From the NCBI GenBank assembly GCA_964468285.1, contig CAYYKG010000018.1, positions 21,742 through 53,741 on the forward strand: a stretch of DNA of 32,000 nt, written 5' to 3'. Shown piece after piece: positions 6,925 through 29,064 of the stretch. Positions within the stretch are counted from its first letter, which is position 1; every line of letters begins with the position of its first letter. Origin of the DNA: an uncultured Syntrophorhabdus sp. Lineage in GTDB: Bacteria > Desulfobacterota > Syntrophorhabdia > Syntrophorhabdales > Syntrophorhabdaceae. Position numbers and translations under genes: made by a program. The notes beneath the pieces were generated by a model. That model searched no databases, was not told the DNA's origin, and was given only the letters and a program-made list of their open reading frames with translations.

Positions 6925-6937
6925 AACAACTCCTGTA

Positions 6938-10111: not shown

Positions 10112-10452
10112 TCTTTCTTCATCTTGTTTTTCTGACGCCTAACACTCAGCCGATAAATGATAAATTCGTTTAATATAACAAACGACAATAAGATTAGACC
10201 TCGGGCATATATCGAGTCGGGTATATCTATACGCGATAGCCCTGATGCATTCAGTATCCCTATGCATAATGCCCCCACTAGACTCCAAGGTGAGGCAACT
10301 ACCACAAGAAACAGAGCTGCAAATTGATCCGTTGAATCCGCCGTGGCAAAATATAGGAAAGATGGAATCACAAGGATAGTGTAAACAATGTTACCCAAAT
10401 ACGATTTGATGAATTGTCTCATTTTCGCCTCTTGAAAACCTCTCATGGACAT
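10108..10452 (-). CDS. Small multi-pass membrane protein; candidate immunity for the PLA2-like toxin
   Basis: 114 aa with about three hydrophobic helices, visibly AT-rich, overlapping the 3' end of the toxin cassette. An alternative ATG at 10446 forms ATGA with the toxin stop. Confidence 0.6.
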   Translation of the reverse strand: MSMRGFQEAKMRQFIKSYLGNIVYTILVIPSFLYFATADSTDQFAALFLVVVASPWSLVGALCIGILNASGLSRIDIPDSIYARGLILLSFVILNEFIIYRLSVRRQKNKMKKE

Positions 10453-10847
10453 CCACAGTATTGTCTGGCCTTCTTGAAAGCAGGTTTCGCTCCGAAAGAT
10501 ACTGCTGCATAATAGATACTAGCAGCCGAAGTGCATGACTGGAATAAGCCAGGGATAGCGATATACTTGAAACAAATCTTTTGCATACTGACGAAAAATG
10601 CAAGGTCACATGCTGCCTTATTTCTTCCTTGTTTCTCGCCTACACAACCATAACAGTCATCATGAGCTTGACAGGGTTTGGAGAAGTCCAGAACCCAAAA
10701 CGGTCGATCAGGAACCCACTTGGCATCTTCATTCCCGCAAGGACCGGGAAACAATCCCATGACATCAGTTTTGTTCACCGGGTTATTGTCCGCGTGATAC
10801 CGTCGGAAAACCCCCTCGTTGACCTCGGTATTTGCCATCATCGCCAT
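10443..10847 (-). CDS. Orphan Rhs-CT cassette: residual core end + phospholipase A2-like toxin domain
   Basis: RYHADNNPVNKTDVMGL is a degenerate Y..NNP....DP.GL core terminus. Downstream, PCQAHDDCYGC (10644-10673) matches the PLA2 catalytic C-x-x-H-D-x-C-Y signature and GPCGNED could be a Ca-loop. An in-frame TGA lies about 11 codons upstream of the ATG, so there is no attached Rhs body. Confidence 0.7.
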   Translation of the reverse strand: MAMMANTEVNEGVFRRYHADNNPVNKTDVMGLFPGPCGNEDAKWVPDRPFWVLDFSKPCQAHDDCYGCVGEKQGRNKAACDLAFFVSMQKICFKYIAIPGLFQSCTSAASIYYAAVSFGAKPAFKKARQYCGCP

Positions 10848-12643: not shown

Positions 12644-12895
12644 TTATCGATGTAATCTCCCCTCCCGTCTTCTTCTGACTATCAATCGGCCGATTTTAAA
12701 CATTAAAACCAAGACACCTAAGGCAGCTGTGATGAGCACAGTGTTAATCATTGCAAATAGCAGAACACCGGAAACGCCTACGGAGTCTGCATTTGGCCAG
12801 TTCTCTCTAACGATCTGATAGATGATGTTCAACAGAAGTATGACCGCTACTGCCATAAGCCAGTGTTTAGTCTTCATCTTTCCTCGCTCCATCAC
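12644..12895 (-). CDS. Small two-helix membrane protein; candidate immunity for the main Rhs toxin
   Basis: Starts 8 nt after the rhs stop and is visibly AT-rich. Two hydrophobic helices and an Arg-rich tail. ATG 12877 preceded by GAGGA is an equally plausible start. Confidence 0.6.
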   Translation of the reverse strand: MMERGKMKTKHWLMAVAVILLLNIIYQIVRENWPNADSVGVSGVLLFAMINTVLITAALGVLVLMFKIGRLIVRRRREGRLHR

Positions 12896-12903
12896 ATAAG
12901 AGG

Positions 12904-15900
12904 CTAGTTGTTTTCATGTCTACCCATCATATCAGGCGCAGAAGAAGGCACCGTGAAAAGTCTGTTTCGCTTGTAAGGGGGTTTGCTTGCATCACGAGGC
13001 CGGTTTGGCCAAGATCCAGCCTTGCTGAGCCCACAGTTTTCAAGGGCTGTGGCCACGCAATGACAGCAATTGTACATGGTAAGGTAGTAGTCGAATGCTC
13101 TGCATTTTCTCATTTCTCGCCTTACACAGGCATCACTCCCGCAGCCTACCGTAGGACTAAACTTGGCGGCACCGGGATTAGCGTCTGGCCCAATTCCCTG
13201 ATTTGTAAAACTCAATGTATCGTCATTGCGACCATTGAACCTGACAAAGCAGTGTCGTGCGTACGGTACTGCATAAGGATAAAACGTTCGAACCCCTACT
13301 TCCACAAATAGGCCTTTCGGGTCGACGCGGTTCATGGGACTATTGTTCGTGTAAACGAAAAGGTTCGGTTCATTCAGCAAGGGTTTTCCGACAGTATCCG
13401 CGTAAACATACGGATCTATCCCTCCCTCCAGCCCTATCGGGTCAGGGGTGAGGTACCTCCCTGTCCTGGGGTCGTAGTAGCGGTTCCAGTTGTAGTGGAG
13501 GTTCGTCTCGGCATCGAAGTACTGCCCGGGGAAGCGTATGTTGTTCGTTATGGTGGAGGCGCCGTCGACCTCCGCGTGTCCGAAGCCGTGGTAGGCGGCC
13601 TGCCAGGCAACGGTGCCGGCAGAGTTCGTCATGACCCTCGGGGTGTTGATGTGGTCGGTGTGGAAGTAGTACACCGTATCGGTGGGCCTCACGGTGGCAA
13701 GGGGCATGTCGGAGAGGTAGACGTATTCGACAAGGGTATTCCCGGCGGTGTCCGTCTCCGCTATCAGATGTCCGTTCACATCGTAGTGGAATATCCTCGT
13801 CTCGGCGGGTGTCGCCTTCTTCACCCGGAGGTTGCGTGCATCATAGACGTAGGAGGCGATCTCAGTCTCATTGTCGGTAACCGCGGTGAGCCTGTTCGTA
13901 AGGTCGTAGGTGAAGGTGCGGGTGCCTTCGGTGATGATGTTCCCGTTAGCATCATGGGTGAGGGTCGCCGTGGGGGTGCCCGTTATGGTCGTGAGGCGGT
14001 TCGTCCCGGACTCATAGGCGTAGGTGGTGGAGTCGATGTACTGCCCGGGGGCGCTGCCGATCGTATCCGTTATGGAGGTGACGTTGCCGCTGGCGTCATA
14101 ACCGTAGGAGAGGGACAGGACGGAGCCGGCGGTGATCGAGGAGAGGCGGTACTGGTTGTCCCATGTCTGAGTGAGGGAGAGGCTGTTCCCGTAGGTCAGG
14201 GACGCGATCCCCCCGAAGGGCATGTAGGTGATGGATGAGGCGAGGGTGACGGGGGTGCCCTGGGTCGTCATGCTCACCTGGGATACCCTCTGCACCGTGT
14301 CCATGGTATAGCTTACCACCCTTCCCGACGGATAGGTAACGGAAGTGAGAATGTTGTTCTTGTTGTAGGTGTACTGGGTCGTGTAGGAGACGCTGTTCAC
14401 GACCTTGTCCTCCCGCACCATGTTTCCCTGGGCGTCATAGGAGAAGGTGTAGGTGCCGGAGGGGTCCGTCCGCCCCGTGAGCCTTCCGATACCGTAGGTG
14501 ACGGAGGTGGAGTCGTAGGTGAAGGTTATGTTCTGCGTGGAGTCGGAGGGGAACTGGACGGAGGTTATCCGGTTGAGGGCGTCGTAGCCGTAGTTGACGA
14601 CGGTGCTTCTCGCGTCCGTCATCTGGGTCACGTTGCCGGCGGGATCGTGGACGTACTTCGTCGTCCCCGTGTCGGGGGAGACGACCTGATTGAGCCTGCC
14701 GAAGTCGTCATAGGCGTACTGGGTGGTGAAGGTGTTGGGGTCGACTATGGACGAGGGGTTGTCCTGGGTGTCATAGTTGTAGCTCGTGAGGTTCGACCCC
14801 GGCCTCGTCATGGTCCGGGCCCTGTCGAGGGCATCCCAGGTGAAGGAGGTGGTGTTGTCCCTCGGGTTCCTCACGGCGGTCCTCTCCGACCTCTCGTTGT
14901 AGGTGTACTGGGTGTAGGTGGAGTCGGGGTTCACGATCCGGTAGATGTTGTTGTAGGCGTCGTAGGTGAGGTCGAGGTACTTCTTGAGGACATTACCGGG
15001 ATCCCTGACCTCCTCGCGGGTGCGGTTGCCCTCCACGTCGTAGGAGTACGTGATCTTGTTCCCCTGGTTGTCCTGTATCCCGGTGAGCCTGTCGGCGAGG
15101 TTGTAGGTGTAGTCTATCCTGTTGCCCTCGGGGGGTATGACGTAGGAGAGGTTCCCCCTGCCGTCGTAGAAGTACTGGATCTGACCGTTCGTCGACTGGT
15201 TCGTGGAGGTGAGAAGGCGGTTCCTCTGGTCGTAGGTGTGCACCGTGACGACACCGTCGGGGGCGGTGATCGTCCCCGCGTTGCCGTTCGCATCGTAGTT
15301 GGAGAAGGTTGTCACCTGTCCCAGGGCGTTCGTGATCGTGTAGAGGCGGCCCCGGTTGTTGCCCTCTTCTGCCGTGTTGGCGTAGTAGGCAAGCGTCGTC
15401 GTGTCCGTCACGTCCGTGCGGGGACCGTTGATCTCGGCGAGCTGTCCCAGGGCGTTGTACTGGTAGGAGGTGGTATAGGTCCTCTGGACAGGTGACCCGT
15501 CGACGAGGACATAGCCCGTTACCGTCACCGAGGAGACGTTGCCCGCGGTATCGTAGGCGGTCGTTATCACCTTCGACTGGCCGGTACTCACGACACTCGG
15601 CTTCGTCTCGGACCTCTCAGTGAGGAGGAAGGGGTCGTCGGTGCGGTGGGTGTAGGCGTATGTCGTCTCCCTCTCCTCGGCGAGACCGTAGGCCTCCTTC
15701 ATGCTCGTCACCTCTCCCACGTAGTCCCAGAAGCTCGTGGGGGCGTCATAGGTGTAGTGGGTGGTGTACGCCTGGCTCTCGGAGGTGCGGGTGACGTCCG
15801 TCAGGGTGCCCCGGGTGTCGTAGGTGAAGGACTTGTGCAGGCTCCCCCCGCAGGTCGAGCCGCACCCGTCCACGGCGGTCACGAGGCGTATGCCGTCGTT

Positions 15901-16953
15901 GATGGCGGTGGTGTACGTCGTCGTCCCCGTGGAGCGGGTCAGCGTCGTGGTGTTGGGGGTGGAGGTGTAGTCGTAGGTGAAGGTTATCTGCTCCTGGTTG
16001 ACGGTGTCCCTGACGAAGCGGTAGTAGGTGGAGACCCTGCCGTTCGCGTCATAGGCCCAGTGGCCGATGAGGTTCGAGGAGGTGTCGTACTTGTCCGTCA
16101 TGCGGTGGCTGGAGTAGGCGTAGCTTAACGACCGGCTGTCGGGGTAGCTGACCTGGGTGAGGTCGCTGCTGGTATAGGTGTATGTCACCTGCTGGCTCTT
16201 CGGGTCGGTGACGGAGGATATCTTCGTCCCGCTGTACGCGATCGTGAGGCTCCTGCCGTAGTTGTCGGTGATGTCGGTGACAAGATCGCTCGTATACGTG
16301 AGGGTGAGGGAGTTCCCGCTGGGGTCGGTGATGCTTGTAAGCTTGCCGTCCGTTCCGAAGGTGTAGGTGAGGTTGGAGTCGCTCTTCCTCAGGACATACT
16401 GACCCGTGGAGATGATCTTCTTGAACCGGTGGCGCACCCCGGACTCCCCGTAGAAGCGCAGCTCGTCGGTGTACGTCTGGAAGATGCGGGAGAAGTAGAG
16501 GGCCCGACCGTCGGAGTCCATGACCTTGATCCGTACGGGTGTTGTCACACCCCCTATCGTCCAGTTCGTCACGACCGTGACGGACATGTTGTAGGTGTGC
16601 GTCCATCCGTAGCCCAGGGGACCGTCGGAGAGCATGCTGCTGTTGTAGGACCTTTTGAACTCGAGGGGAATGCCGGGGGTGGAGAAGGAGACGTCGAGGG
16701 CCTCCTCGTACTTCTGGCCCGTGCCCACGTTGACGGGGTTGGCGACGAACGGGGCGGGCACGCCCTCCCTTGTGCCCCCGGCGTTCAGGTCGGCTGCCTC
16801 GGACGAAGGGACGGGACCGGGCTGCGCAGAGAGGGCCGCATCCTCGCTATCCTGCACCAGGGGAGCGGCTTCACCGGGTACGTGCATCGTTATGGAGACA
16901 ACTGCCAGCAGCATACCGAAAATGCATATCCACGCTCCAATCATCATCTTCAC
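12904..16953 (-). CDS. Full-length Rhs/YD-repeat polymorphic toxin (1349 aa) with N-terminal hydrophobic leader and a papain-fold (PPPDE/DeSI-like) C-terminal domain
   Basis: Leader MKMMIGAWICIFGMLLAVVSITM. Rhs N-terminal region NPVNVGTGQKYEEALD. Dozens of YD repeats. Core end is RYYDPRTGRYLTPDPIGLEGG...NLFVYTNNSPMNRVDPKGL. The 134-aa tail (12907-13308) has ARHCFVRF...TLSF and YYLTMYNCCHCVATALENCGL...WPNRP, resembling the PPPDE His...NC-H order. Confidence 0.95.
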   Translation of the reverse strand: MKMMIGAWICIFGMLLAVVSITMHVPGEAAPLVQDSEDAALSAQPGPVPSSEAADLNAGGTREGVPAPFVANPVNVGTGQKYEEALDVSFSTPGIPLEFKRSYNSSMLSDGPLGYGWTHTYNMSVTVVTNWTIGGVTTPVRIKVMDSDGRALYFSRIFQTYTDELRFYGESGVRHRFKKIISTGQYVLRKSDSNLTYTFGTDGKLTSITDPSGNSLTLTYTSDLVTDITDNYGRSLTIAYSGTKISSVTDPKSQQVTYTYTSSDLTQVSYPDSRSLSYAYSSHRMTDKYDTSSNLIGHWAYDANGRVSTYYRFVRDTVNQEQITFTYDYTSTPNTTTLTRSTGTTTYTTAINDGIRLVTAVDGCGSTCGGSLHKSFTYDTRGTLTDVTRTSESQAYTTHYTYDAPTSFWDYVGEVTSMKEAYGLAEERETTYAYTHRTDDPFLLTERSETKPSVVSTGQSKVITTAYDTAGNVSSVTVTGYVLVDGSPVQRTYTTSYQYNALGQLAEINGPRTDVTDTTTLAYYANTAEEGNNRGRLYTITNALGQVTTFSNYDANGNAGTITAPDGVVTVHTYDQRNRLLTSTNQSTNGQIQYFYDGRGNLSYVIPPEGNRIDYTYNLADRLTGIQDNQGNKITYSYDVEGNRTREEVRDPGNVLKKYLDLTYDAYNNIYRIVNPDSTYTQYTYNERSERTAVRNPRDNTTSFTWDALDRARTMTRPGSNLTSYNYDTQDNPSSIVDPNTFTTQYAYDDFGRLNQVVSPDTGTTKYVHDPAGNVTQMTDARSTVVNYGYDALNRITSVQFPSDSTQNITFTYDSTSVTYGIGRLTGRTDPSGTYTFSYDAQGNMVREDKVVNSVSYTTQYTYNKNNILTSVTYPSGRVVSYTMDTVQRVSQVSMTTQGTPVTLASSITYMPFGGIASLTYGNSLSLTQTWDNQYRLSSITAGSVLSLSYGYDASGNVTSITDTIGSAPGQYIDSTTYAYESGTNRLTTITGTPTATLTHDANGNIITEGTRTFTYDLTNRLTAVTDNETEIASYVYDARNLRVKKATPAETRIFHYDVNGHLIAETDTAGNTLVEYVYLSDMPLATVRPTDTVYYFHTDHINTPRVMTNSAGTVAWQAAYHGFGHAEVDGASTITNNIRFPGQYFDAETNLHYNWNRYYDPRTGRYLTPDPIGLEGGIDPYVYADTVGKPLLNEPNLFVYTNNSPMNRVDPKGLFVEVGVRTFYPYAVPYARHCFVRFNGRNDDTLSFTNQGIGPDANPGAAKFSPTVGCGSDACVRREMRKCRAFDYYLTMYNCCHCVATALENCGLSKAGSWPNRPRDASKPPYKRNRLFTVPSSAPDMMGRHENN
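13482..14285. repeat. Master copy of the rhs core repeat (identical to 7381-8184; diverged copy at 9488-10090)
   Basis: Same comparison as for 7381-8184. Confidence 0.9.
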
Positions 16954-17068
16954 GGGCTAACCCCCTTCAGGTTTATGGGATTCGGTAGTAGGGATCGAAT
17001 CCTTCGGTTCTTGTGATCTCTCGTATCGGTTTCTTCTGTATCGAGTTGAGGCAACGCCTGTTCTGGTC

Positions 17069-17647
17069 TCATCTCATCCCCTGACCGCCAACGGTGATGT
17101 CACACGTCCCGGCACACCCTCCCCCGGCGTTCCTGTCCGTCATCTCGGTGGTTATCGGTGGATCAGGCTGCTGGGTCGGGGGAGAACCGGGGCCGCATAT
17201 GTAATACCAGTAATTGGTTTTTCTCCAATAGTTCTGTTCCGGATCCCATCCCGGGTCCCGGCAGTTTTTGCAGGTGAAACCACAGTTCGTCACTCCAGGG
17301 CAGAAATAAAAGCAACCAGAGGTCGAGCTACAGCACGGGGGACAATCTAAACACCAAGTACAGCCCCATTCCCAATACTCCAGATTACTGCAATAGGACG
17401 GTTTCGGGCTGGGGGCCGCCGCACATAATGCCTGTACTGCGGCATAATCCGCCTCCAAAGCGGCCACCGCACTGCCCCTGTCAGGGAAGACGAGGGTCGT
17501 GAACATCTCGTTGGCCAAACACTCGGCCAGAGATGAGCCGGGTGGATATCCCCACGTCAGTGCCCCACACGATGATGGAAATCCTGCAGAAACCGTCTGG
17601 ACTATCAGGAAAAAACCCAACGCGTACAGCAGAAGACTGACTCTCAC
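17069..17647 (-). CDS. Small secreted Cys-rich protein P4, NAGG-module family, directly upstream of the main rhs
   Basis: I chose GTG 17647 (GGAGGA 6 nt upstream), giving MRVSLLLYALGFFLIVQTVSA GFPSSCGALTWGYPPGS. Ends ITTEMTDRNAGGGCAGTCDITVGGQGMR. 17121-17175 is 54/55 identical to 3666-3720. Confidence 0.75.
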   Translation of the reverse strand: MRVSLLLYALGFFLIVQTVSAGFPSSCGALTWGYPPGSSLAECLANEMFTTLVFPDRGSAVAALEADYAAVQALCAAAPSPKPSYCSNLEYWEWGCTWCLDCPPCCSSTSGCFYFCPGVTNCGFTCKNCRDPGWDPEQNYWRKTNYWYYICGPGSPPTQQPDPPITTEMTDRNAGGGCAGTCDITVGGQGMR

Positions 17648-17915
17648 TGGCGTTCCTCCATGTAGATCGGTGGATGGAGTTTCCAATACCTTCTTCTGGG
17701 CATACCTACGTTATGGCCTTATGTCCGGGCAGCGTGATGGAATGTCAAAGATGATCTGGATGTCTTACTGTGTCTTACCACAGGCGTGAGGAATGTTGTC
17801 AAGCGTTTTTTTCATAATACTGCTATACTGATATATCACTTTACTTACGTTCTCCAAGAACTCCGTATGGTTATACTGACAGAGAATATTTTTCTTACAG
17901 TGTCCTCTACGTTCC

Positions 17916-18344
17916 TCATTCCCAGCTCGCGACATCCTTGTCTTCCCCTTCCCCGCCGGGCGAACCGTCCCTTCCATACGAGAACAAATCATATTCTCCA
18001 TGGGTGCCTGGAGCCTGATAATGGTAGGGTTTACCCCAGGGATCATTGGGAAGTGCCTTCTTGAGATAGGGTCCTTCCCAGTTCTCGATACCCGGGTTGG
18101 TGACGAGGGCATTGAGTCCCTCCTGCATCGAAGGATAACGTCCCACGTCAAGTCTGAAGTGGTCGAGGGTCTGGCCCAGAAGCTCTATCTGGGCCTTTGC
18201 AGCAGCCTGTTTCCCTTTGCCCAGCTTCGGGAACACCCGCGGCCCCACCAGGGCGACAAGCAGGCCGACGATCACCATCACGACAAGAAGCTCTATGAGC
18301 GTGAAGCCTCTTGTGTCCGAAGTCCTCGTTTGACTGCACGACAT
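17916..18344 (-). CDS. gspG: T2SS major pseudopilin GspG
   Basis: Prepilin motif RGFTLIELLVVMVIVGLL plus the GspG signature PNDPWGKPYHYQAPGTHGEYDLFSYGRDGSPGGEGEDKDVASWE. Confidence 0.95.
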   Translation of the reverse strand: MSCSQTRTSDTRGFTLIELLVVMVIVGLLVALVGPRVFPKLGKGKQAAAKAQIELLGQTLDHFRLDVGRYPSMQEGLNALVTNPGIENWEGPYLKKALPNDPWGKPYHYQAPGTHGEYDLFSYGRDGSPGGEGEDKDVASWE

Positions 18345-18661
18345 GTCATCCTCCAGTTAGTCATGTATTGTATCGATGCCTGTCAATGGATGATTAACCA
18401 GTGTGTTTCTTCTTCATTTCGCGGAGACTAAGATGGTGATCTGATAATTAGTACTGACATTGTATGACTTTTATTCTTGACAGTCCACCAAATATTGTTT
18501 AACTTCAAATTTACTTCGGGTGACAAACACCAGGATCGACAGAATACCTGAATAGAACGGCCGAAACAGCACAGCACTCAGTCGCGGGTCTCGGGGATGC
18601 TTTCTCTACTTCCGGGAAGGAAGCACAGATCCGCAGGCTGCCATTGATGTTCGGAGAGTCT

Positions 18662-22452: not shown

Positions 22453-23646
22453 GTGGCCGTCTATTCATATACTGCCACGACGCTCGACGGCACCATCGTA
22501 CAAGGTGTTGTGGAGGCATCGGATGAGAGGGTCGCCCTTGAGCGCATCAAGGGGACCGGCGTCATACCGCTCAGGATCACAGTGCCCAGGGCAGGCCTCG
22601 GGAAGGCCCTCCGGGACAGGTCCCCGAGGGGAGACATCCTCACCTTCACCACCGAACTCTCCGCCCTCATCGGGGCGGGCCTGCCCATCGACCGGAGCCT
22701 CAACATTCTCGGCGAAATATCAGAGGGAAAGGCAATGAAGGGAGTCGTCCAGTCGGTCTTGAGGGACATCCGCGGGGGCAGTTCCTTCTCGGAGGCGCTG
22801 CAGAGGCACCCGAAGCTCTTCCCGAGACTCTATGTGAGCATGGTCAGGGCAGGCGAGACGGGCGGCGTCCTCGATGTCGTCCTCGACAAGCTCGGGGAGT
22901 TCCTGGAAACGGCAAAGGAACTCAAGGACAGCGTCTTCTCCGCCATGATCTATCCGATCATCCTCGCCGTCACCGGCGGCATCTCCATTGTCATCCTCCT
23001 TACCTTCGTCATCCCCAGGTTCTCCGTCATCTTCAGGGAACTGGGCGGAACCCTCCCCCTTTCGACTCAGGTCATCCTGGGGATGAGCAACGCGCTCAGG
23101 TCGTGGTGGTGGGTGGTCTTCCCCCTCATCGCCGCCGGCGTATTCGCCTTCGTTTCTTACGTCAGAACGGAGAAGGGCACGTACGTGTGGGACAGGATGA
23201 AACTCAGGTTCATCGGTGACGTGGTGAAAAAACTCGAGACGGCCCGTTTCTGCAGGACCCTGGGGACGCTCATAAGAAGCGGGGTACCCTTCCTCCAAGC
23301 CCTCCAGAACTCAAGGGATGTCATAGGCAACAGGATCGTTGCCGAATCCATCGGGGCCGTCACGAAGAACGTGCGGGAGGGCAAGGGAGTTGCCGGCCCC
23401 CTCATGGATGCGGGGGTCTTCCCCCAGCTTGCCCTGTCCATGATAAAGGTCGGGGAGGAGACGGGACAGCTCGACACCATGCTCCTCAGGGTGGCGGCCA
23501 CGTATGAGAAGGGACTGAGAGAGGCGGTGAAGAGGTTCATGGGTCTCCTGGAGCCGGCGATCATCCTCTTCATGGGGCTTGTCATCGCCTTCATCGTCAT
23601 CTCCATGCTCATTGCCGTCTTCAGCATACTGGAGCTGCCGTTTTGA
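22453..23646 (+). CDS. gspF: T2SS inner-membrane platform protein GspF
   Basis: 397 aa with two GspF-type repeats (LSALIGAGLPIDRSLNIL / LGTLIRSGVPFLQALQ) and three hydrophobic segments. Immediately follows gspE. Confidence 0.9.
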   Translation: MAVYSYTATTLDGTIVQGVVEASDERVALERIKGTGVIPLRITVPRAGLGKALRDRSPRGDILTFTTELSALIGAGLPIDRSLNILGEISEGKAMKGVVQSVLRDIRGGSSFSEALQRHPKLFPRLYVSMVRAGETGGVLDVVLDKLGEFLETAKELKDSVFSAMIYPIILAVTGGISIVILLTFVIPRFSVIFRELGGTLPLSTQVILGMSNALRSWWWVVFPLIAAGVFAFVSYVRTEKGTYVWDRMKLRFIGDVVKKLETARFCRTLGTLIRSGVPFLQALQNSRDVIGNRIVAESIGAVTKNVREGKGVAGPLMDAGVFPQLALSMIKVGEETGQLDTMLLRVAATYEKGLREAVKRFMGLLEPAIILFMGLVIAFIVISMLIAVFSILELPF

Positions 23647-24095
23647 GAGAGAAGGAAGGTTTCACGCTATTGGAACTGGTGATCGTTATGACCCTCATGG
23701 TCATCATGCTGGGTTTGTCGGGTGCTCAGTTCGCGAACCTTCTTCCATCGGTAAGGCTCAACTCCGCCGGACGGGAACTGTCGGGCCTCATCCGGATGGC
23801 CCGCGTGGAGGCCATGAGCAGCGGCGAGGAGCGCAAGGTCACCATCGACCTCGACGGAAGGCGGTACGGTTTCTCCGGCGGGCCCGTACGGACCCTTCCC
23901 GAGGATGTCGGCGTCAGGGTGCTTGACCCCCTTTCAGGCGAGACGACACGAGGAACATACCATATCGCGGCCGACCCTCTGGGCAGTGTCCGGTCATGCG
24001 AGGTGGTCCTGTGGAACAGGAAGAGGAGTTTGACGATAGCGGTCGATCCCGTCGTGGGGTCGACGGTATTGAAGGGTACCAGGGAAGGGCGTTAA
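23643..24095 (+). CDS. gspH: Minor pseudopilin, GspH-like
   Basis: Prepilin motif EGFTLLELVIVMTLMVIML. Size and operon position fit GspH. The TTG start overlaps the gspF stop (TTGA). Confidence 0.6.
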   Translation: MREKEGFTLLELVIVMTLMVIMLGLSGAQFANLLPSVRLNSAGRELSGLIRMARVEAMSSGEERKVTIDLDGRRYGFSGGPVRTLPEDVGVRVLDPLSGETTRGTYHIAADPLGSVRSCEVVLWNRKRSLTIAVDPVVGSTVLKGTREGR

Positions 24096-24096
24096 G

Positions 24097-24507
24097 ATGC
24101 GCGGCCACGACAGGTACCTTAGGAATCAACGGGGTTTCACGCTCCTTGAAATCCTCGTGGCATTTGTCATCCTCGCGGTGACGGTGACCGTCATCCTCCA
24201 GCTCTTCTCCGCGAACCTGAAGACGCTGTGGATGTCCGACGACTACGTGACGGCGGCCACTCTGGCCGACGTGAAGATGAGGGAGGTGCTCGAGAGCGGA
24301 GTCCTTAGGGAGAACACGTCGAGCGAGACGACACCGCAGGGGTACCGCATGGATGTGGTCGTAACAGAGGCCCTTATGAAGCGAACGGAGAACCTCACGT
24401 GGAAGATGTTCGAGGTGGCCTTGAAGGTTTCCTGGCAGAAGGAGGGGAAAAACAGAACAATATCCGTGAGGACTCTGAGGACGGCGAAGAGGGAGGCGGT
24501 CCGGTGA
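24097..24507 (+). CDS. gspI: Minor pseudopilin, GspI-like
   Basis: RGFTLLEILVAFVILAVTV prepilin motif. 136 aa, position after gspH. Confidence 0.6.
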   Translation: MRGHDRYLRNQRGFTLLEILVAFVILAVTVTVILQLFSANLKTLWMSDDYVTAATLADVKMREVLESGVLRENTSSETTPQGYRMDVVVTEALMKRTENLTWKMFEVALKVSWQKEGKNRTISVRTLRTAKREAVR

Positions 24508-25160
24508 CGGACGGACGGAGACAGATTCCCGGGACTGGTCATCCGCTACGAAGGCTGTCGGGCTTCACGCTCCTGGAGCTCATGATCTCCATCGTCCTCG
24601 TCACCATCATCGTTGTCCTCCTCGGGGCCTCAATGCGGGTGGGATACCGTTCACTCGAAAGGGGAGAGGAAAAGGCCGAATCCATGGAGCGTTTCAGGGT
24701 GTCTCTGCGGCTCGTGGATTCACAACTCCAGTCGGGCCTGCCGTTGACAATTAAGGAGGACGGGCTGAACAGGTCCGTCTTTGTCGGCAGGAGAGACCGC
24801 ATGACCATCGCGTCGAACCGGTCCCTCTTCAGGGGAGGAAGGGGGTACGTCATCGCCTCATACAGGGTCGAGTCCGACACGAACGACAAGCGAACCCTCT
24901 TTGTGCATGAGACCACCATCGGGTTCGACAACGGACAGGAGACGAAGCTGCTGGAGGGTTTCGACCAGATTCGCTTCGAATACTACCAGGTGGACGACAT
25001 GAAGGGTGAGGGCCAATGGGTGGAGGAGTGGGCCGATGAGACCAGGTTTCCCGGAAAGGTGAGACTCCATCTGGGACAGGGCACAAGGAGGTTCTCCCTC
25101 ATAATACCCGTCCACGTGAAGAAGGTCGCACGGGGCCGGCACCTCGGGGGGGACGTATGA
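24504..25160 (+). CDS. gspJ: Minor pseudopilin, GspJ-like
   Basis: I chose GTG 24504 (GTGA overlap with the gspI stop) rather than the track start 24399. SGFTLLELMISIVLVTIIVVLL prepilin motif, ~218 aa. Confidence 0.6.
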   Translation: MTDGRRQIPGTGHPLRRLSGFTLLELMISIVLVTIIVVLLGASMRVGYRSLERGEEKAESMERFRVSLRLVDSQLQSGLPLTIKEDGLNRSVFVGRRDRMTIASNRSLFRGGRGYVIASYRVESDTNDKRTLFVHETTIGFDNGQETKLLEGFDQIRFEYYQVDDMKGEGQWVEEWADETRFPGKVRLHLGQGTRRFSLIIPVHVKKVARGRHLGGDV

Positions 25161-26131
25161 GAAGGCTCAGACCTACCCGCTCCCAAAGGGGCTTTGCCCT
25201 CCTTGTCACGCTCTGGGTCATTATCATCCTAATGTCCATCGTCATGTCCTTCTCGCTCCTTGCAAAGACCGAGGCGTTCGCTGCCCTGTTCTTCCGTGAG
25301 TCTTTCGCAGCGAGGCTCCTGGCTGAAGCGGGCCTCGACAGGGCCATCATGGAGATCTACTACCGGCGAGCGAACCTGAACAGGACGGTCATCCCCGAGG
25401 GCGGCGAGGTGGTCCGGGTGGACGGGACCGAGATCGAGGGTGTCCTGGGAGACGACCGGTACGTCGTGCGGATATTCAACGAGGCGGGCAGGATCAACAT
25501 CAACACCATGAACGATCGGAACAAGGTCATCCTCGGCAACCTCCTCGCCAACCTCGGCGTGCCGGGGGAGACCGCGGATACCATCATGGACTCGGTCCTC
25601 GACTGGATGGACAAGGACAACCTTCACCGCCTCCACGGTGCGGAGGACGAGTACTACCAGTCGCTCCCCAATCCGTACAAAGCGAAGAACGCCCCTTTCG
25701 ACACGATGGAAGAGCTCCTCCTCGTGAAGGGCATGACGGAGGAGATCCTCTTCGGAACGAAGGAGCGCAAGGGCCTCATCGAGTTCGTCACCGTCTACGG
25801 CAATTCCTCGAAGATCAACGTTAACATGGCCCCGAAAGAGGTGATCATGGCCATGCCCGGCATGACGGAGGAGACGGCGGACAGGATCATCTCCCAACGG
25901 TTGGTCAGCGAGCTTAAGTCCCTCGACGACGTTCGCGCCCTCATGGGAGCGCTGTACGCCGGCGCGTCGGGCTACATCGATACCGGTGAGTCGAGCAGCT
26001 TCACTGTGGAGTCCATGGGTCTCAGGAAGAGGGGCGGTACCGGCCATGGCATCCGGGCGACCGTTGTCGTTCAGTCCGTCGGAGAATACCGGTACGTCTC
26101 GTACAAGATTCCGGCTGAGGTTCGCAGATGA
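25157..26131 (+). CDS. gspK: Minor pseudopilin GspK
   Basis: RGFALLVTLWVIIILMSI plus the GspK signature DWMDKDNLHRLHGAEDEYYQSLPNPYKAKNAPFDTMEELLLVKGMT. ATGA overlap with gspJ. Confidence 0.85.
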   Translation: MRRLRPTRSQRGFALLVTLWVIIILMSIVMSFSLLAKTEAFAALFFRESFAARLLAEAGLDRAIMEIYYRRANLNRTVIPEGGEVVRVDGTEIEGVLGDDRYVVRIFNEAGRININTMNDRNKVILGNLLANLGVPGETADTIMDSVLDWMDKDNLHRLHGAEDEYYQSLPNPYKAKNAPFDTMEELLLVKGMTEEILFGTKERKGLIEFVTVYGNSSKINVNMAPKEVIMAMPGMTEETADRIISQRLVSELKSLDDVRALMGALYAGASGYIDTGESSSFTVESMGLRKRGGTGHGIRATVVVQSVGEYRYVSYKIPAEVRR

Positions 26132-27684
26132 ACATCGGATCGCTCGTCAGAGGACGGTTCATCGAAGGATCCCTTTCACGGGCCGAGGCCGCAATGGTCC
26201 GGGCAAAGTCCCTTGGTCTCACGGCATGGGCCATTCTCAACTACAACCTCGTGGAAGGGATACTCCTCCCAAAGAGATATCTTGCCGTATGCCTCGAACC
26301 CGGGGGCGTCTCCGTCGCATGCGGGGAGCGCTTCCTCAACCGGAACTACCTCAGGAGATCAAAGCGGTACACGTTCGAGGATGGCGGGTACGTCACCCCA
26401 GCCGGCCTCGCCGCCACCGCGACACTCGCCATGGAAGAACTCCACTGCCGCGGGTCAGGGGTTCTGCTTGGGCTGCCACGGGAGTGGCTCGTCACGAGGA
26501 CGGTGGGACTCCCCTCCGTCGTTAGACAGAACCTCGACAACGTCGTTGCCTACGAAATCGACAGGCTGACCCCGCTCAACGCCGATGACGCCACGTACGA
26601 TTACCTCGTGGGCACGGAGAAGGACGGCAAGCTCACCCTATCCCTCATGGCAATGAAGAAAGGGCTTTTGGAGCCCTATGTCACGGCCCTGAATGAGATG
26701 AAGTCGTCGCCCGTGAGGATATCGACCCCGCTGATGAGCATGGCAAGACTCTCCAGCGCTCTCGTGGATAACGACGCGCACACGCTCCTCCACGTGGGGG
26801 CACATGCGTTTGAAGGGGGGTTCGTTGAGAAGGGGAACATTGCGAACACCTTTTACGGGTCCTTCAACACCTCGGGTGACAGCGGTATTGAGGACGGCTG
26901 GCGTTCCGAGATACTATCCGTGCTGGAGCAGCAGCACAGCATTGCAAAACCTTTGCTCGTATGTCTTCTCTCCGAAAAGGATGGCGTGGAAGTACCGGAA
27001 GCAGTCATGAACACAGTAGTACGGAAATTGAAGGCTGGCGATATGACATCTCTGTTCAGGTCAAAGCAGGAAAACATACCCTGGGCGCCGGTATGTATGC
27101 TCTACGAGGCCCTCTCGAACGGCGCACGAAGCTTCAACCTCGCCCCCGGGGCGGAAAGGCGCAGGAGTCCCTTTATCACCACGCTGTTACTCGTCGCGCT
27201 CCTCGTGGCCATGATGGTGCCCTATGTCGTTGTGCCCCTCGAGATGGAAAAGAGAAAGATAAGCGAGATCGAGCACCAGATAACAGCCAGGAAGAAGGAC
27301 GTGAGGGCCGTCGAAGCAATGAAGAAGGACATCGACCTTGTCCAGTCCGAGATAGACGAGATAGAACGGTTCAAGAGAGGGAGGCCGATGGCCCTCAATG
27401 TTCTGAAGGAACTCACGACGCTCCTTCCGAAGACAGTATGGCTCACGCGGACGAGGGTCACGGAGCAGACGGTGGAGATTGAGGGATACGCGTCCTCGGC
27501 GACAAGCTTGCTCTCGCTGCTCGAGGAATCTAATCTCTTCAAGAAGGTCGAGTTTGCCTCTCCGACGGTGAAGGACACACGGCTCAATTCGGACCGCTTT
27601 GTCATCCGTATGGAGATAGAGGGCTTCGAGAAACAACCTGACGTCAAGGAAAGAACACAGAGGAAAGATGGTGCGAAGAAATAG
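26128..27684 (+). CDS. gspL: T2SS assembly-platform protein, GspL-like (PilM-like cytoplasmic domain + TM + PilN-like periplasmic domain)
   Basis: 518 aa with a single TM (FITTLLLVALLVAMMVPYVVVPL), then a coiled coil and a PilN-like end (NVLKELTTLLPKTVWLTRTRVTEQTVEIEGYA). Operon position of gspL. ATGA overlap with gspK. Confidence 0.65.
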   Translation: MNIGSLVRGRFIEGSLSRAEAAMVRAKSLGLTAWAILNYNLVEGILLPKRYLAVCLEPGGVSVACGERFLNRNYLRRSKRYTFEDGGYVTPAGLAATATLAMEELHCRGSGVLLGLPREWLVTRTVGLPSVVRQNLDNVVAYEIDRLTPLNADDATYDYLVGTEKDGKLTLSLMAMKKGLLEPYVTALNEMKSSPVRISTPLMSMARLSSALVDNDAHTLLHVGAHAFEGGFVEKGNIANTFYGSFNTSGDSGIEDGWRSEILSVLEQQHSIAKPLLVCLLSEKDGVEVPEAVMNTVVRKLKAGDMTSLFRSKQENIPWAPVCMLYEALSNGARSFNLAPGAERRRSPFITTLLLVALLVAMMVPYVVVPLEMEKRKISEIEHQITARKKDVRAVEAMKKDIDLVQSEIDEIERFKRGRPMALNVLKELTTLLPKTVWLTRTRVTEQTVEIEGYASSATSLLSLLEESNLFKKVEFASPTVKDTRLNSDRFVIRMEIEGFEKQPDVKERTQRKDGAKK

Positions 27685-28225
27685 GCTTCTTCCATATGCG
27701 GTCCCCGTGATCATCATCCTCGCCTGCCTCACCGCATGGCAGTACGGGTACGTGAACGCCCGTCAGGAGATCGCGTCGCTGAAGGAAGCGAGCGCTTCGA
27801 GAACACGGGCCCTCGTGAAATCCATGGAGGTCATAGCAAGCAAGCCAAACCTTGAAAAGAAGCTTGAGACCCTGAAGGAGAAAAGGAAGTCCGATGCTTC
27901 GAAGATCCTGGAGGCGCAGACACCGTCACTGTGCGCCGCCAGCCTGCAGGAGACCGTGAAGGGCGTCATCACCGGCCGGGGAGGATTGATCACGAGCGAG
28001 CGGGTGGAGAAGCCGGAGAACCTGGGGAGGTTCCATGTAGTGAGCATCAGCGTCGACGCGACCTTGCCCGATACAAGAGCCTTGAGCGATGTCCTGTATG
28101 GCATAGAAACACGCACTCCTTTCATAGTGGTGAGGGAGGTGGACACACGGGTGCGGAACTTCCGGGACCCCCGGGAGCTTGTGGTGAAACTGCGCCTGTC
28201 GGCGCTTGCGGGAGCACAACAGTAA
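27668..28225 (+). CDS. gspM: GspM/PilO-like bitopic platform protein
   Basis: 185 aa: N-terminal TM, coiled coil, small C-terminal domain. Called from position and topology only. Confidence 0.5.
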   Translation: MVRRNRLLPYAVPVIIILACLTAWQYGYVNARQEIASLKEASASRTRALVKSMEVIASKPNLEKKLETLKEKRKSDASKILEAQTPSLCAASLQETVKGVITGRGGLITSERVEKPENLGRFHVVSISVDATLPDTRALSDVLYGIETRTPFIVVREVDTRVRNFRDPRELVVKLRLSALAGAQQ

Positions 28226-28947
28226 TGATGAGATTACTGGAGACGATCGCGCGTCATGTAACGGTCCTCAACGTCCTGCTGACTGTTGCCGTGATGCTGG
28301 CAGGTACCGGCATCGTCTTTCCCCTCGCGCGCATGGATTACCGCTACAAGCTCCCCCGGATTGCGCAACAGGTTGCGCCAGCCGAGGAAAAACCTGTCGA
28401 GGACTCACCGGCGGCACTGCCCACCGACTATGCTGTGGTCGGGGAGATGAACCTCTTTCACCCGGAAAGGATAACCCCCATAGACAAGAAGGCGGAGTTG
28501 CCCAAGCCGGAGCTCATACTCTACGGGACGATCGTTGATGACAAACAGCAGGTGGCCTTCATCGAAGACAAGAAGGCTCCGGTCACGTCGCCTGGGAGGG
28601 GAAAGCGGCAGACAGTGGTCAAGAAGGGGTCGGTCATCAACGGTTTCACGGTTACGGAGATCGCCCGGGACAGAATAATACTGGTCCGGGGGGAAGAACA
28701 TATGTCGGTGGGACTCATGGATGGAGAGAAAAGAAAGGATGGCACTGAACGGGACAAGAAAGCATCTCTCCCTCCGACAATTCCACCGTCCGGCCCTGCC
28801 CCACCCTCTTCTTCTGCAGGAACACCGAGAATACAGCCGACGGAACCGTTAAAACCCGCACAGCCCCCTGTCCCGTCCATTCCCCGGAGAGTGACGACGA
28901 ACGATAAGGGCGTCACCGCTCCCGTCACAGCATCACCAAGAAAATGA
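28225..28947 (+). CDS. GspC/PilP-like (HR-domain) protein with Pro-rich tail
   Basis: I chose ATG 28225 (TAATG with the gspM stop); the track ORF from 27931 overprints gspM. TM segment VTVLNVLLTVAVMLAGTGIVF. LILYGTIVDDKQQVAFIEDKK....VVKKGSVINGFTVTEIARDRIILVRGEE resembles the PilP/GspC HR fold. Confidence 0.5.
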   Translation: MMRLLETIARHVTVLNVLLTVAVMLAGTGIVFPLARMDYRYKLPRIAQQVAPAEEKPVEDSPAALPTDYAVVGEMNLFHPERITPIDKKAELPKPELILYGTIVDDKQQVAFIEDKKAPVTSPGRGKRQTVVKKGSVINGFTVTEIARDRIILVRGEEHMSVGLMDGEKRKDGTERDKKASLPPTIPPSGPAPPSSSAGTPRIQPTEPLKPAQPPVPSIPRRVTTNDKGVTAPVTASPRK

Positions 28948-29058: not shown

Positions 29059-29064
29059 ACATCC

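Follow-up and report, generated by a model that had tools for sequence, protein, structure and literature searches.

Is an Rhs toxin that is encoded beside a type II secretion system (T2SS) exported through it? The question is raised by a stretch of 32,000 nucleotides (the window) from an uncultured member of the Desulfobacterota, in which gspG, a small Cys-rich gene (P4), a large rhs gene and an immunity candidate follow one another on the minus strand, and the operon gspD-E-F-H-I-J-K-L-M-C diverges from them on the plus strand, beginning at 18644, 300 nt from the start of gspG. An earlier note on this DNA had described both the gene order and the divergent operon, and we find them as given, coordinates included. 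The genes concerned are as follows.

12644..12895, minus strand: 83-aa ORF directly after rhs, two hydrophobic segments, candidate immunity protein of the main Rhs toxin
12904..16953, minus strand: main Rhs toxin, 1349 aa (DUF6531, RHS repeats, RHS core, TIGR03696)
17069..17686 (alternative start 17647), minus strand: P4, ‘TWGYP’-type head encoded between gspG and rhs, 192-205 aa with 17 Cys (match P0014)
17916..18344, minus strand: gspG, T2SS major pseudopilin (TIGR01710, 168 bits, cut-off 88.85)
18644..20926, plus strand: gspD secretin (TIGR02517, 390.6 bits, cut-off 351.35)
20923..23646, plus strand: gspE ATPase and gspF platform protein (Pfam T2SSE 482 bits, T2SSF 202 bits)
23643..26131, plus strand: gspH, I, J and K, minor pseudopilins (N_methyl motifs, T2SSJ, T2SSK)
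26128..28947, plus strand: gspL (PilN-containing, 518 aa), gspM and a weak delta-type gspC (family matches)

The single gsp gene on the strand of rhs is gspG. Within 26128..28947 the GspM family NF040576 matches above its cut-off (77.8 bits), and GspC_delta at only 26 bits. The T2SS had been called complete, which is right for its structural genes; the prepilin peptidase GspO is not encoded within the 32,000-nt window. A substrate gene lying beside its own gsp operon is a known pattern, as with pulA and pulC-O or sslE/yghJ and gspC-M.

The main Rhs protein is predicted to consist of a leader, a ~45-aa linker with the motif ‘DLNAGG’, a DUF6531 plug beginning at N72-P73, a YD shell with 10 RHS-repeat stretches, an RHS core containing DPIGL and a C-terminal tip of ~135 aa whose family is unassigned. 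At the position of the 83-aa ORF, lineage L006 has a different 70-aa membrane ORF. Leaders were judged by the best 12-residue Kyte-Doolittle mean within the first 70 residues. This value was 2.65-3.14 for Rhs, P1-P4, the FG-GAP protein and a TIG protein at the left end of the window, compared with 2.59 for the GspD signal peptide and 0.6-1.5 for GspE and the orphan fragments. The hydrophobic leaders ascribed by the earlier note to two large YD proteins and the FG-GAP protein are therefore supported by hydropathy, the ‘YD’ label of the second large protein being another matter (see below). The hydrophobic stretch of the Rhs leader is long (~20 residues), and an uncleaved membrane anchor, which would count against the export model, is possible. 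None of the ORFs scanned in the window matched PAAR, VgrG, Hcp, LXG, WXG or TcA families, in agreement with the claims that trafficking domains of the PAAR, VgrG-binding and LXG types are lacking and that the 32 kb hold no T6SS, Tc (TcA) or T7SS genes. Because Rhs combines a Sec-type leader, only ~45 residues before its plug and, in the domain scan, no PAAR, prePAAR or VgrG-binding domain, its loading onto a T6SS would be unlikely. Export of Rhs by Sec is strongly inferred.

Three further small genes resembling P4 lie towards the left end of the window.

3026..3541, minus strand: P1, ‘GIFExVTPHxGSxLE’-type head of 171 aa with 11 Cys and a signal peptide of its own (match to P0043)
3611..4135, minus strand: P2, ‘TWGYP’-type head, 174 aa when begun at the public gene-call start, the ORF reaching 4174 (match P0100)
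4132..4716, minus strand: P3, ‘TWGYP’-type head of 194 aa with 15 Cys (match P0099)

P4 has no Pfam match; over its full length it aligns with residues 1-183 of P0014, a DUF6531/RHS protein (36% identity, E = 1e-27), and residues 9-169 of P1 are 64% identical to the N-terminal 171 aa of P0043, a DUF6531 Rhs fragment. P1-P4 are detached copies of a Cys-rich N-terminal head that is fused before the DUF6531 plug in sister Rhs proteins, where it is placed between signal peptide and plug; P0117 (1423 aa) is a complete example of the fused form. What is new is this identity of the small Cys-rich genes beside rhs as detached heads of the toxin. P1 ends in ...CDAMVRD, in register with the residue that precedes the plug proline; P4 and several others also stop at the residue before the first plug proline, and the remainder do so within a few residues. 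Junction motif and exact C-terminal register held when 16 stand-alone and 15 fused or full-length sequences were compared. The plug, the N-terminal cleavage site and the anchoring of the N-terminal fragment in the shell have been described for Tse5 (PMC10684867). Judged by register, the end of the P proteins matches K47|P48, the point at which Tse5 undergoes its N-terminal autocleavage, and the last ~20 residues of the heads, aligned in the same way, to the Tse5 segment that is anchored in the shell. An AlphaFold model of the head (pLDDT 71) found no fold match in the PDB.

The window and three other lineages (L006/L095, L097-L099 and L100/L101) have stand-alone heads directly upstream of an rhs gene. 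The head segment is hypervariable: its flanks are 91% identical between the window and the sister species and enclose one head gene in the former, four in the latter. The 3' ends of P2 and P4 share 95% DNA identity over 61 nt. All nine head copies in the two species are intact ORFs, each with its own start and signal peptide. Elsewhere there are at least six further stand-alone head clusters (176-188 aa) versus three or four fused.

Two larger proteins with hydrophobic leaders flank P1-P3.

3..2897, minus strand: second large secreted protein, N-terminal 965 aa, running off the left end (TIG, TTR-like domains)
4856..6067, minus strand: FG-GAP beta-propeller protein, 403 aa (Pfam FG-GAP_3, 111 bits)

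The leader of the left-end protein ends ASA|Q and is accompanied by three TIG/IPT (CoaZ-type) domains and a teneurin TTR-like domain. It had been taken for a second large YD protein; the 965 aa inside the window (3-2897) bear out a large protein with TIG and teneurin-TTR domains and contain no YD repeats, and the last of these residues, ‘NAEGNPVSNV’, look like a junction followed by the beginning of a DUF6531 plug. The N-terminus of the FG-GAP protein is hydrophobic, with a weak RHS-repeat match near it (21.0 bits, cut-off 22). The protein also matches TcdB_toxin_midN at 30.4 bits over the whole protein (cut-off 24.8), no single stretch passing alone, and this is the sole Tc-like trace in the scanned ORFs. 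In the sister species its gene comes straight after the rhs-immunity pair, and it is 91% conserved in L006/L095. A role as accessory subunit is possible.

Between this gene and the immunity candidate of the main Rhs lies an array of toxin cassettes.

6340..6963, minus strand: 207-aa protein, candidate immunity protein or regulator of orphan cassette 1 (weak HTH match; 38% GC segment)
6938..8176, minus strand: orphan rhs C-terminal cassette 1, comprising shell end, RHS core and an alternative toxin tip (Pfam RHS_repeat, RHS)
8476..9078, minus strand: candidate immunity protein of orphan cassette 2, 200 aa in the public gene calls (no family match)
9083..10111, minus strand: orphan rhs C-terminal cassette 2 (Pfam RHS)
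10108..10452, minus strand: small membrane protein, candidate immunity protein for the PLA2-like tip (weak DUF7942)
10443..10847, minus strand: phospholipase-A2-like toxin tip fragment without shell, adjoining the IS (Pfam PLA2G12 and Phospholip_A2_3, both below cut-off)
10957..12603, minus strand: IS transposase (DDE_Tnp_1_6 / DUF772), its insertion separating the main rhs-immunity pair from the orphan cassettes

In cassette 1, 889 nt (7296-8184) are 99.1% identical to rhs 13397-14285, and 609 nt of cassette 2 are 91.8% identical to the rhs core. The IS is missing in the sister species; together with the PLA2-like tip fragment it has rearranged the array. Its predicted domains make the locus a polymorphic-toxin island built around an Rhs with Sec leader and DUF6531 plug.

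The order gspG-P-rhs is kept in three related uncultured lineages, the window included, with GspG 87-100% identical (97% in L006/L095; 87% in L097-L099, where the Rhs N-terminus is 77% identical). Among GTDB species that share the divergent gspG|gspD layout, the five closest have no rhs, P or FG-GAP gene beside gspG; in four of these the place is taken by signal-peptide proteins of 816-847 and 885-1508 aa, which the L010 annotation calls an autotransporter and a beta-propeller-like protein. The six loci that carry the nearest Rhs homologues (50-61% identity) all have unrelated genes as neighbours and no gsp genes in the flanks read (up to 10 kb per side). The pairing of rhs and Cys-rich genes with gsp that the earlier note asked about thus exists in three lineages and is absent from the five nearest species, and insertion at loci unrelated to gsp, which it had named as speaking against a T2SS link, is what all six homologue loci display in the flanks read. 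The rhs-gsp linkage is not general, being confined to a narrow clade of uncultured, anaerobic Syntrophorhabdales-like Desulfobacterota, and inherited synteny after a single insertion explains the synteny data equally well. At 4 of 59 loci from other species gspG has an unrelated giant Sec-leader RHS protein as its direct neighbour, and a fifth such protein follows gspD; the cases beside gspG in Smithellaceae are plain co-occurrences, at loci that are not phylogenetically independent.

The adjacency could be a chance island insertion, the Sec-exported Rhs reaching its targets otherwise (in outer-membrane vesicles, by lysis-type release of the kind known from Tc toxins, or by remaining on the cell envelope) and the T2SS serving other substrates. 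We regard this as possible but doubtful. The scattered loci of the nearest homologues and the gsp clusters of the five nearest species, orthologous and devoid of rhs, fit it well, as do the IS, the low-GC cassettes and the rearrangements, which are marks of a mobile island. So does the bulk of the Rhs shell, to which the reported width of the secretin channel is close. The folded Rhs core measures ~100 x 60 Å (10.1101/2024.02.26.582050). However, the gspG-head-rhs order has persisted in three lineages, with GspG down to 87%, while the head segment turned over; independent RHS giants adjoin gspG in Smithellaceae; a T2SS-dependent Rhs bacteriocin provides experimental precedent; and no holin, endolysin or spanin genes for lysis-type release were seen in the window. 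That the P genes are functionless debris, the 5' ends of former rhs genes displaced by recombination, is improbable. Their number at one site differs fourfold between sister species, their ends coincide with the expected recombination junction, and an 11-nt in-frame microhomology, AACGCCGGGGG, joins the P4 tail and the rhs 5' region; but debris would hardly leave nine of nine copies intact with start and signal peptide, stand-alone clusters outnumbering fused ones, or several proteins with ends exactly at the cleavage-site position instead of at chance stops farther downstream.

Still less probable is a Tc- or teneurin-like complex in which FG-GAP propeller and Rhs shell form a TcB/TcC-type cocoon, with a TcA-like translocator encoded elsewhere. 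The weak TcdB_toxin_midN and RHS-repeat matches of the FG-GAP protein, the teneurin TTR domain of the left-end protein and the single-chain SpvB-FG-GAP-TcdB-RHS proteins with leaders at related loci all point that way, but TcA and an SpvB domain are missing in the window, Rhs itself lacks a TcdB_mid domain and carries the kind of plug, DUF6531, that is usual in stand-alone Rhs shells, and the orphan tips and immunity-like ORFs suggest interbacterial use. The least credible reading has a T6SS elsewhere in the genome deliver Rhs via unlinked adaptors. Although the diderm Rhs toxins characterised so far are mostly delivered by T6SS, and Tse5 is an example of a T6SS Rhs with DUF6531, this reading is opposed by the Sec-type leader so close to the plug, by an Rhs that has no PAAR, prePAAR, clade or VgrG-binding domain, by the disulfide-rich, extracytoplasmic-type heads behind signal peptides in fused relatives, and by the absence of vgrG, hcp and Eag genes from the 32 kb.

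The explanation that we favor as a whole, with a probability of roughly 0.55, is a Sec-exported Rhs island with T2SS passage and split heads. Rhs, the heads and the FG-GAP protein would leave the cytoplasm by Sec, the heads would form disulfides in the periplasm, and the shell-plus-toxin would cross the outer membrane through the neighboring T2SS, a step to which we give about even odds; the gspG-P-rhs synteny, the lack of any terminator-like site between gspG, P4 and rhs, and the other RHS giants beside gspG or gspD count in its favor. Of the T2SS-linked export suggested earlier, the leader and the synteny in three lineages stand, and a general linkage does not. Once outside, Rhs would diffuse and act like a bacteriocin, the mode suggested for Xanthomonas Bcn-A, and the heads may be alternative target-binding modules, either docking to the shell in trans or serving as recombination cassettes. 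The cis linker of Rhs, with its ‘NAGG’ motif, could fill the anchoring site, which speaks against docking in trans. The view that a Sec plus T2SS route for Rhs would be unusual is outdated. T2SS was given as an export class for many RHS toxins by Zhang et al. in 2012 (PMC3482391), the 1398-aa Rhs protein Bcn-A of X. perforans has supernatant activity that is lost in an xpsD mutant (PMC7259588), and a 2025 preprint links Rhs families to gspG in Xanthomonas and Ralstonia (10.1101/2025.05.08.652813). The idea of gspG-linked Rhs export is thus not new, having already been proposed for plant pathogens.

Among known systems, WapA of Bacillus subtilis and Streptococcus suis shares a Sec signal peptide, DUF6531 and non-T6SS export (PMC12704120), but is anchored to the wall of monoderm cells, where there is no outer membrane in its way, and has neither a T2SS link nor detached heads. 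Tc toxin BC cocoons and teneurins resemble the locus in the YD shell, the FG-GAP propeller gene adjoining the shell gene and the TTR-like and TIG domains of the second large protein; the window differs in having neither TcA nor an SpvB domain, in an architecture split over several genes, and in an immunity-like ORF and orphan tips that indicate bacterial targets. The T6SS effectors Tse5, RhsA and Rhs1, with N-terminal plug and double autocleavage, share the DUF6531 plug, the YD shell, an RHS core with a DPxGL aspartyl-protease region and an N-terminal fragment ending just before the plug proline, shell-bound in Tse5 (PMC10684867). Their N-terminal fragments, however, are PAAR, prePAAR or transmembrane trafficking modules without a Sec leader, whereas the N-terminus here is a signal peptide with or without a Cys-rich head, the head lying in separate genes. 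Orphan rhs C-terminal cassettes (‘rearrangement hot spot’) are represented by the two in the window, with 91-99% identical core DNA, and the head genes look like their mirror image at the 5' side, variable modules between conserved ends; orphan tips lack start codons and export signals, whereas each head is a whole gene that encodes a signal peptide of its own. Also among the closest systems are the gspG-linked Rhs proteins of Xanthomonas (XRhs F VIII, which includes Bcn-A) and Ralstonia (RRhs F II) (10.1101/2025.05.08.652813). There too rhs is physically tied to gspG, Sec plus T2SS rather than T6SS is predicted, orphan cassettes and an immunity gene lie downstream, and small accessory ORFs adjoin the toxin, Bcn-A requiring ORF2-4 (PMC7259588; 10.1101/2025.05.08.652813). 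The same junction motif precedes the plug in the Xanthomonadales DUF6531 Rhs proteins P0088 (Rhodanobacter) and P0080 (X. bromi); P0088, which is complete at the N-terminus, has a signal peptide as well. The present host belongs to another phylum, the Xanthomonas protein is only ~27% identical to the Rhs of the window, and gspG is here the cluster's own major pseudopilin gene beside a full gsp operon, with accessory genes that are detached Rhs heads.

The gene order of the window is as the earlier note gave it: on the minus strand, gspG is followed by P4, rhs and an immunity candidate, and the gsp operon diverges from it. P4 is one of four stand-alone Cys-rich proteins with their own leaders, the other three (P1–P3) being encoded near the left end. 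On the rhs strand, gspG precedes P4 by 229 nt and rhs by 962 nt, and a promoter and terminator scan, in which overall counts were at chance level, found no terminator-like site between the three genes.

Gene map of the window, from the ORF listing and family scans
Off the left window end, minus strand: TIG/teneurin-TTR protein, first 965 aa
4716–3026, minus strand: P3, P2 and P1
6067–4856, minus strand: FG-GAP propeller protein
8176–6938, minus strand: orphan rhs tip 1, with a low-GC 207-aa ORF with a weak HTH match behind it
10111–9083, minus strand: orphan rhs tip 2, with a 200-aa ORF behind it
10452–10108, minus strand: small membrane ORF
10847–10443, minus strand: PLA2-like toxin-tip fragment
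12603–10957, minus strand: IS transposase
12895–12644, minus strand: 83-aa ORF with two hydrophobic segments
16953–12904, minus strand: rhs, 1349 aa
About 17686–17069, minus strand: P4
18344–17916, minus strand: gspG (TIGR01710 at 168 bits)
18644–28947, plus strand: gspD-E-F-H-I-J-K-L-M and a weak delta-type gspC, the first gene 300 nt from the gspG start
29002–29859, plus strand: AbiEi-type antitoxin/regulator gene
30008–30439 and 30808–31353, minus strand: two ankyrin-repeat genes

The secretion genes had been described as a complete T2SS, which holds for GspD (TIGR02517, 390.6 bits, above the cut-off of 351.35), GspE (T2SSE match, 482 bits), GspF (T2SSF match, 202 bits), GspG, the minor pseudopilins H–K (N_methyl motifs in H, I and J, with T2SSJ and T2SSK matches) and GspM (77.8 bits, above the cut-off of 60); GspD, GspG and GspM pass NCBIfam equivalog cut-offs, and a PilN-containing protein of 518 aa is the GspL candidate. 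However, the GspC_delta match is weak (26 bits against a cut-off of 150), and no prepilin peptidase GspO is encoded within the window.

The main Rhs protein consists of a leader, a DUF6531 plug, a YD shell, an RHS core and a tip. Its YD/RHS repeats are of the shell type (PF05593, 197.6 bits over 10 stretches; TIGR01643, 150 bits), and the core (TIGR03696, 74.4 bits with a cut-off of 32.5, and PF03527) includes '...LTPDPIGLEGGIDPYVYA', with the DPxGL motif that sets off the variable C-terminal tip. Just 72 residues precede the plug, ∼27 of them hydrophobic leader; the protein is headless, with the leader followed by ∼45 residues including 'DLNAGG' and then N72|P73. No Pfam or NCBIfam match to a PAAR, prePAAR or VgrG-binding (clade) domain was found in it, and we reject T6SS delivery of this protein on its N-terminal architecture. 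The family scans also bore out the reported absence of T6SS, T7SS and TcA-type families from the 32-kb window: PAAR, VgrG, Hcp, LXG, WXG and TcA families are found nowhere in it, nor are vgrG, hcp or Eag chaperone genes. A Tc toxin complex, which combines TcA with a TcB of SpvB/TcdB_mid type and a TcC shell, is not supported either: the window encodes neither TcA nor SpvB, and the sole Tc-like trace, a TcdB_toxin_midN match in which no stretch is significant by itself, belongs to the FG-GAP protein, a product of another gene.

The hydrophobic leaders of the earlier note were confirmed by a 12-residue Kyte-Doolittle mean, which reaches 2.65–3.14 at the N termini of Rhs, P1–P4, the FG-GAP protein and the TIG protein, compared with 2.59 for the signal peptide of GspD and 0.6–1.5 for cytoplasmic controls. 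These leaders, the Cys-rich heads of extracytoplasmic type and the lack of a T6SS loading domain argue strongly that Sec exports not only Rhs but also the heads and the FG-GAP protein.

Proteins identical to those of the window were found on JGI and ENA metagenome contigs. The best GspG matches in a collection with one genome per GTDB species are 80–84% identical and belong to Syntrophorhabdus, Syntrophorhabdales and unclassified 'Deltaproteobacteria' MAGs; the source is thus an uncultured Desulfobacterota lineage without a species-level representative in that collection. The earlier note had asked whether rhs and the Cys-rich family neighbor gsp clusters in related genomes, and in two further lineages they do. 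In a sister species (loci L006/L095; GspG 97%, GspD 89% and Rhs core ∼90% identical), gspG is followed by four P genes, rhs, a membrane ORF, the FG-GAP gene and then a further P gene, and a third lineage (loci L097–L099; GspG 87%, Rhs N terminus 77% identical) has gspG, one P gene and rhs, the rhs start overlapping the P stop codon. They do not at any of the five nearest-species loci (L009, L010, L012, L013 and L021; GspE 76% identical), which have the divergent gspG/gspD-...-C layout of the window but, by tblastn, no rhs, P or FG-GAP gene downstream of gspG. In four of these, two large signal-peptide proteins converge on gspG instead, annotated in L010 as an autotransporter and a beta-propeller-like protein, so in the nearest species the site of the rhs island holds other kinds of secreted protein; L021 has other, unrelated genes beside gspG. 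The paired proteins of the four loci measure 816–847 aa and 885–1508 aa and are encoded at positions ∼10.5–17.7 kb of these loci. Several Syntrophorhabdaceae-type genomes have two gsp clusters (L010 and L032, L008 and L014, L031 and L081), one with gspG divergent from gspD as in the window and the other with gspG co-directional with gspD-E-F, which suggests two specialized T2SSs per genome.

The reverse comparison bears on the alternative that the island is inserted at loci unrelated to gsp. The closest homologues of the Rhs N-terminal 455 aa (50–61% identical) lie on six contigs among RND efflux, thiamine, ABC-transporter, amylase and other unrelated genes, and none of the six has a gsp gene within the flank of up to 10 kb on each side. 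This favors the alternative for the subfamily at large, whereas the order kept in the clade of the window speaks against it there. Synteny, the nearest-species loci and this reverse test together indicate that the rhs-gsp linkage arose once and was kept in a narrow clade; across this Rhs subfamily the linkage does not hold in general, and the T2SS-linked export route of the earlier note is supported in part.

Of the 59 species loci where gspG has 3 kb or more of free flank, four, all Smithellaceae-type, have an RHS-repeat gene next to gspG with no intervening gsp gene.

RHS-repeat proteins encoded beside gspG in Smithellaceae-type loci
L061: transglutaminase-PKD-PASTA-DUF6531-RHS, >2071 aa, Sec-type leader
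L064: SpvB-TcdB-RHS-TSP3-Ig, 2094 aa, Sec-type leader
L070: SpvB-FG-GAP-TcdB-RHS, 2167 aa, Sec-type leader
L043: RHS protein, 996 aa, no leader evident at the ORF start used

The gap between gspG and the RHS gene is about 0.35–0.9 kb in L061, L064 and L070 and about 1.3 kb in L043, and in a further locus, L066, gspD is followed by an SP-SpvB-FG-GAP-TcdB-RHS gene, with stop codon and start overlapping. These neighbors point toward linkage but are suggestive only, as the loci are phylogenetically non-independent. On the Smithellaceae chromosome of L064, giant secreted proteins flank the gsp locus on both sides, with a 2133-aa transglutaminase and phosphodiesterase protein (13212–19613) behind gspD and the SpvB-TcdB-RHS protein just upstream of gspG.

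Between rhs and the FG-GAP gene, the window carries two orphan cassettes in which core DNA matching main rhs 13397–14285 (99.1% identical at 7296–8184 and 91.8% at 9483–10090) leads into tips that differ from each other and from that of the main gene. Membrane ORFs behind tips (12644–12895 and 10108–10452) match no recognized immunity family, and neither the three toxin tips nor the immunity candidates have a Pfam match even at E ≤ 1. In the sister species, whose locus has neither IS nor orphan cassettes, the FG-GAP gene comes immediately after the rhs-immunity pair; we conclude from this that insertion or duplication brought the cassettes and the IS into that junction. A 56-nt copy of the 5' part of the FG-GAP gene (8209–8264 against 5888–5943, 96% identical) lies just upstream of orphan cassette 1. 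GC content falls to 38% at 6001–7000, across the 207-aa ORF and the orphan 1 tip, compared with 55–63% elsewhere, as is typical of horizontally acquired toxin-tip and immunity modules; the window has no tRNA gene or Rfam family and hence no clue to an integration site. The two ankyrin-repeat genes past the gsp operon contain DNA segments ∼75% identical to each other, and ankyrin proteins (Imm-ank) are among the listed immunity proteins for some polymorphic toxins (PMC3482391).

Many homologues of the Rhs N terminus carry an extra Cys-rich domain, or head, between signal peptide and DUF6531, to which the P family corresponds. Over its full length, P1 shares 64% identity with the first 171 residues of the homologue P0043, and the whole of P4 can be aligned with all of residues 1–183 of P0014 (36% identity, E = 1e-27). 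P0117 is a complete fused protein of 1423 aa with leader, P4-type head, plug, shell and toxin tip. The variable heads meet the plug at a conserved junction, approximately [DE]-x-(K/R)-N-x-G-x(1-3)-C-x(3-4)-C-x(6-10)-N|P-V-N-V-A-T-G-N-K, a motif also present in DUF6531 Rhs proteins of Rhodanobacter, Chania and Xanthomonas. Right alignment of the stand-alone tails with the fused junctions places the last residue of P1, P4, P0115 and others exactly before the first plug proline; all the remaining stand-alone heads end within a few residues of this point. In the same Rhs subfamily, at least two further head types precede this junction, 'SASGGCPPYxWSLSGGG' (P0012, P0026, P0031, P0040, P0047 and P0053) and 'WAVFVPTHAQY' (P0008, P0017 and P0044), so N-terminal polymorphism extends beyond the P1 and P4 types.

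The head family is rare, as a full HMMER profile search of 1.84 billion representative proteins gave 22 matches at E ≤ 0.001 (two relatives with P4 in a word-indexed search), ∼11 of them stand-alone proteins of 171–194 aa, including P1–P3, and 3–4 fused to Rhs; a metagenome scan with a narrow head alignment returned the sister species only. The head fold has no recognizable relative. Two very large proteins, P0103 (4652 aa) and P0110 (2966 aa), reflect either a repeated Cys-rich module or low-complexity cross-matching. Wherever context exists (the window, the sister species, the third lineage and L100/L101), a stand-alone head lies directly upstream of rhs. Window and sister DNA are 91% identical through gspG and the first ∼140 nt of P4, become unalignable across the head segment, where one gene faces four, and resume 91% identity at the P4 stop codon and into rhs; over 61 nt at their 3' ends, P2 and P4 share 95% identity, with the proteins only ∼40% identical. 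With such turnover between conserved flanks and with shared 3' ends, the heads behave like an array of quickly changing cassettes whose ends are conserved.

An in-frame stretch of 11 nt, AACGCCGGGGG (N-A-G-G), is also identical in the tail of P4 and the 5' part of rhs, where each copy follows a GAC (17121–17141 and 16771–16790), and a deletion from one copy to the other would produce an in-frame fusion of P4 head and shell. Fusion of P4 and Rhs by read-through was rejected because the 115-nt spacer is out of frame. An '(A/T)VSC' in the leaders of P3 (4640–4660) and P2 (about 4050–4070) fits the loose PROSITE lipobox but is probably incidental, because P4 and the fused homologues, which do not have it, align better with cleavage at A|xTWGYP.

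In Tse5, DUF6531 forms the N-terminal plug of the shell, autocleavage falls at K47|P48 with P48 as the first plug residue, and the last 18 residues of the released N-terminal fragment remain anchored in the shell (PMC10684867). On this analogy, each P protein would be the equivalent of a ready-made N-terminal fragment, anchoring tail included. The detached heads may either bind the shell in trans or act as recombination cassettes. The Rhs has a cis linker of its own, which argues against simple docking in trans, and debris would fit poorly with the heads' intact ORFs, their signal peptides and the exact register of their C termini. From their variability and position, and by analogy with the receptor-binding parts of other polymorphic toxins, we infer a role in target binding. 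The most novel interpretation, to which we give a probability of roughly one in five, is of a genetically split, modular Rhs bacteriocin in which interchangeable exported heads would dock to one headless shell and the particle would leave via the gspG-linked T2SS. Each of the P1–P4 heads would end at the natural N-terminal autocleavage site, its conserved tail of ∼20 residues would dock into the DUF6531 plug in the periplasm, and one toxin cage would so gain several target specificities.

For the last step, in which the shell would cross the outer membrane through the adjacent T2SS and act as a diffusible bacteriocin, we consider the chances evenly balanced, on the strength of the synteny in three lineages, the lack of a detectable terminator between gspG and rhs, the Smithellaceae cases and the Xanthomonas precedent. 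The practical question is the passage through a secretin of a cage which in the solved Rhs core measures ∼100 × 60 Å; given the width of the secretin channel, lengthwise passage is at the limit but conceivable. Descriptions of a T2SS-Rhs link have until now been confined to plant-pathogenic Xanthomonas and Ralstonia, with direct proof pending, and the same pairing in an unrelated phylum of uncultured anaerobes, along with the Smithellaceae cases, suggests that Sec plus T2SS may be a widespread second Rhs route. What is new here is that N-terminal heads of Rhs have genes of their own, separated from the toxin at what would be, on the Tse5 analogy, the autocleavage site. Such detachment suggests that the Rhs N terminus can be modular like the known C-terminal end, and the poorly understood N-terminal autocleavage would find a possible rationale as a natural module boundary. 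Should target range be determined by the heads, these loci would offer retargetable protein cages.

As a concept, gspG-linked Rhs export is not new. The earlier note had called a Sec plus T2SS route unusual, but it is already in print for other bacteria (PMC3482391, PMC7259588, 10.1101/2025.05.08.652813), and the window would therefore be a new, phylogenetically distant example. Zhang et al. (2012) listed 'T2SS', meaning signal-peptide-dependent export, as one export class of many RHS-repeat toxins (PMC3482391), and Marutani-Hert et al. (2020) described Bcn-A of Xanthomonas perforans, a 1398-aa Rhs/YD protein that is active from culture supernatant, requires small neighboring ORFs and loses activity in an xpsD secretin mutant, supernatant activity and loss in a secretin mutant being data for Bcn-A only (PMC7259588). 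In a 2025 preprint, linkage to gspG is reported both for the most numerous Rhs family of Xanthomonas (180 toxins in 118 genomes) and for one of Ralstonia (56 toxins), with T2SS export predicted and functional confirmation still pending (10.1101/2025.05.08.652813). Xanthomonadales DUF6531 Rhs proteins are distant matches (P0080, 27%, and P0088, 25% identity) that have the junction motif in common with the proteins described here. The likeness to the gspG-linked Rhs proteins of the Bcn-A type lies in the physical linkage of rhs to gspG, in an order that is kept in both the sister species and the third lineage.
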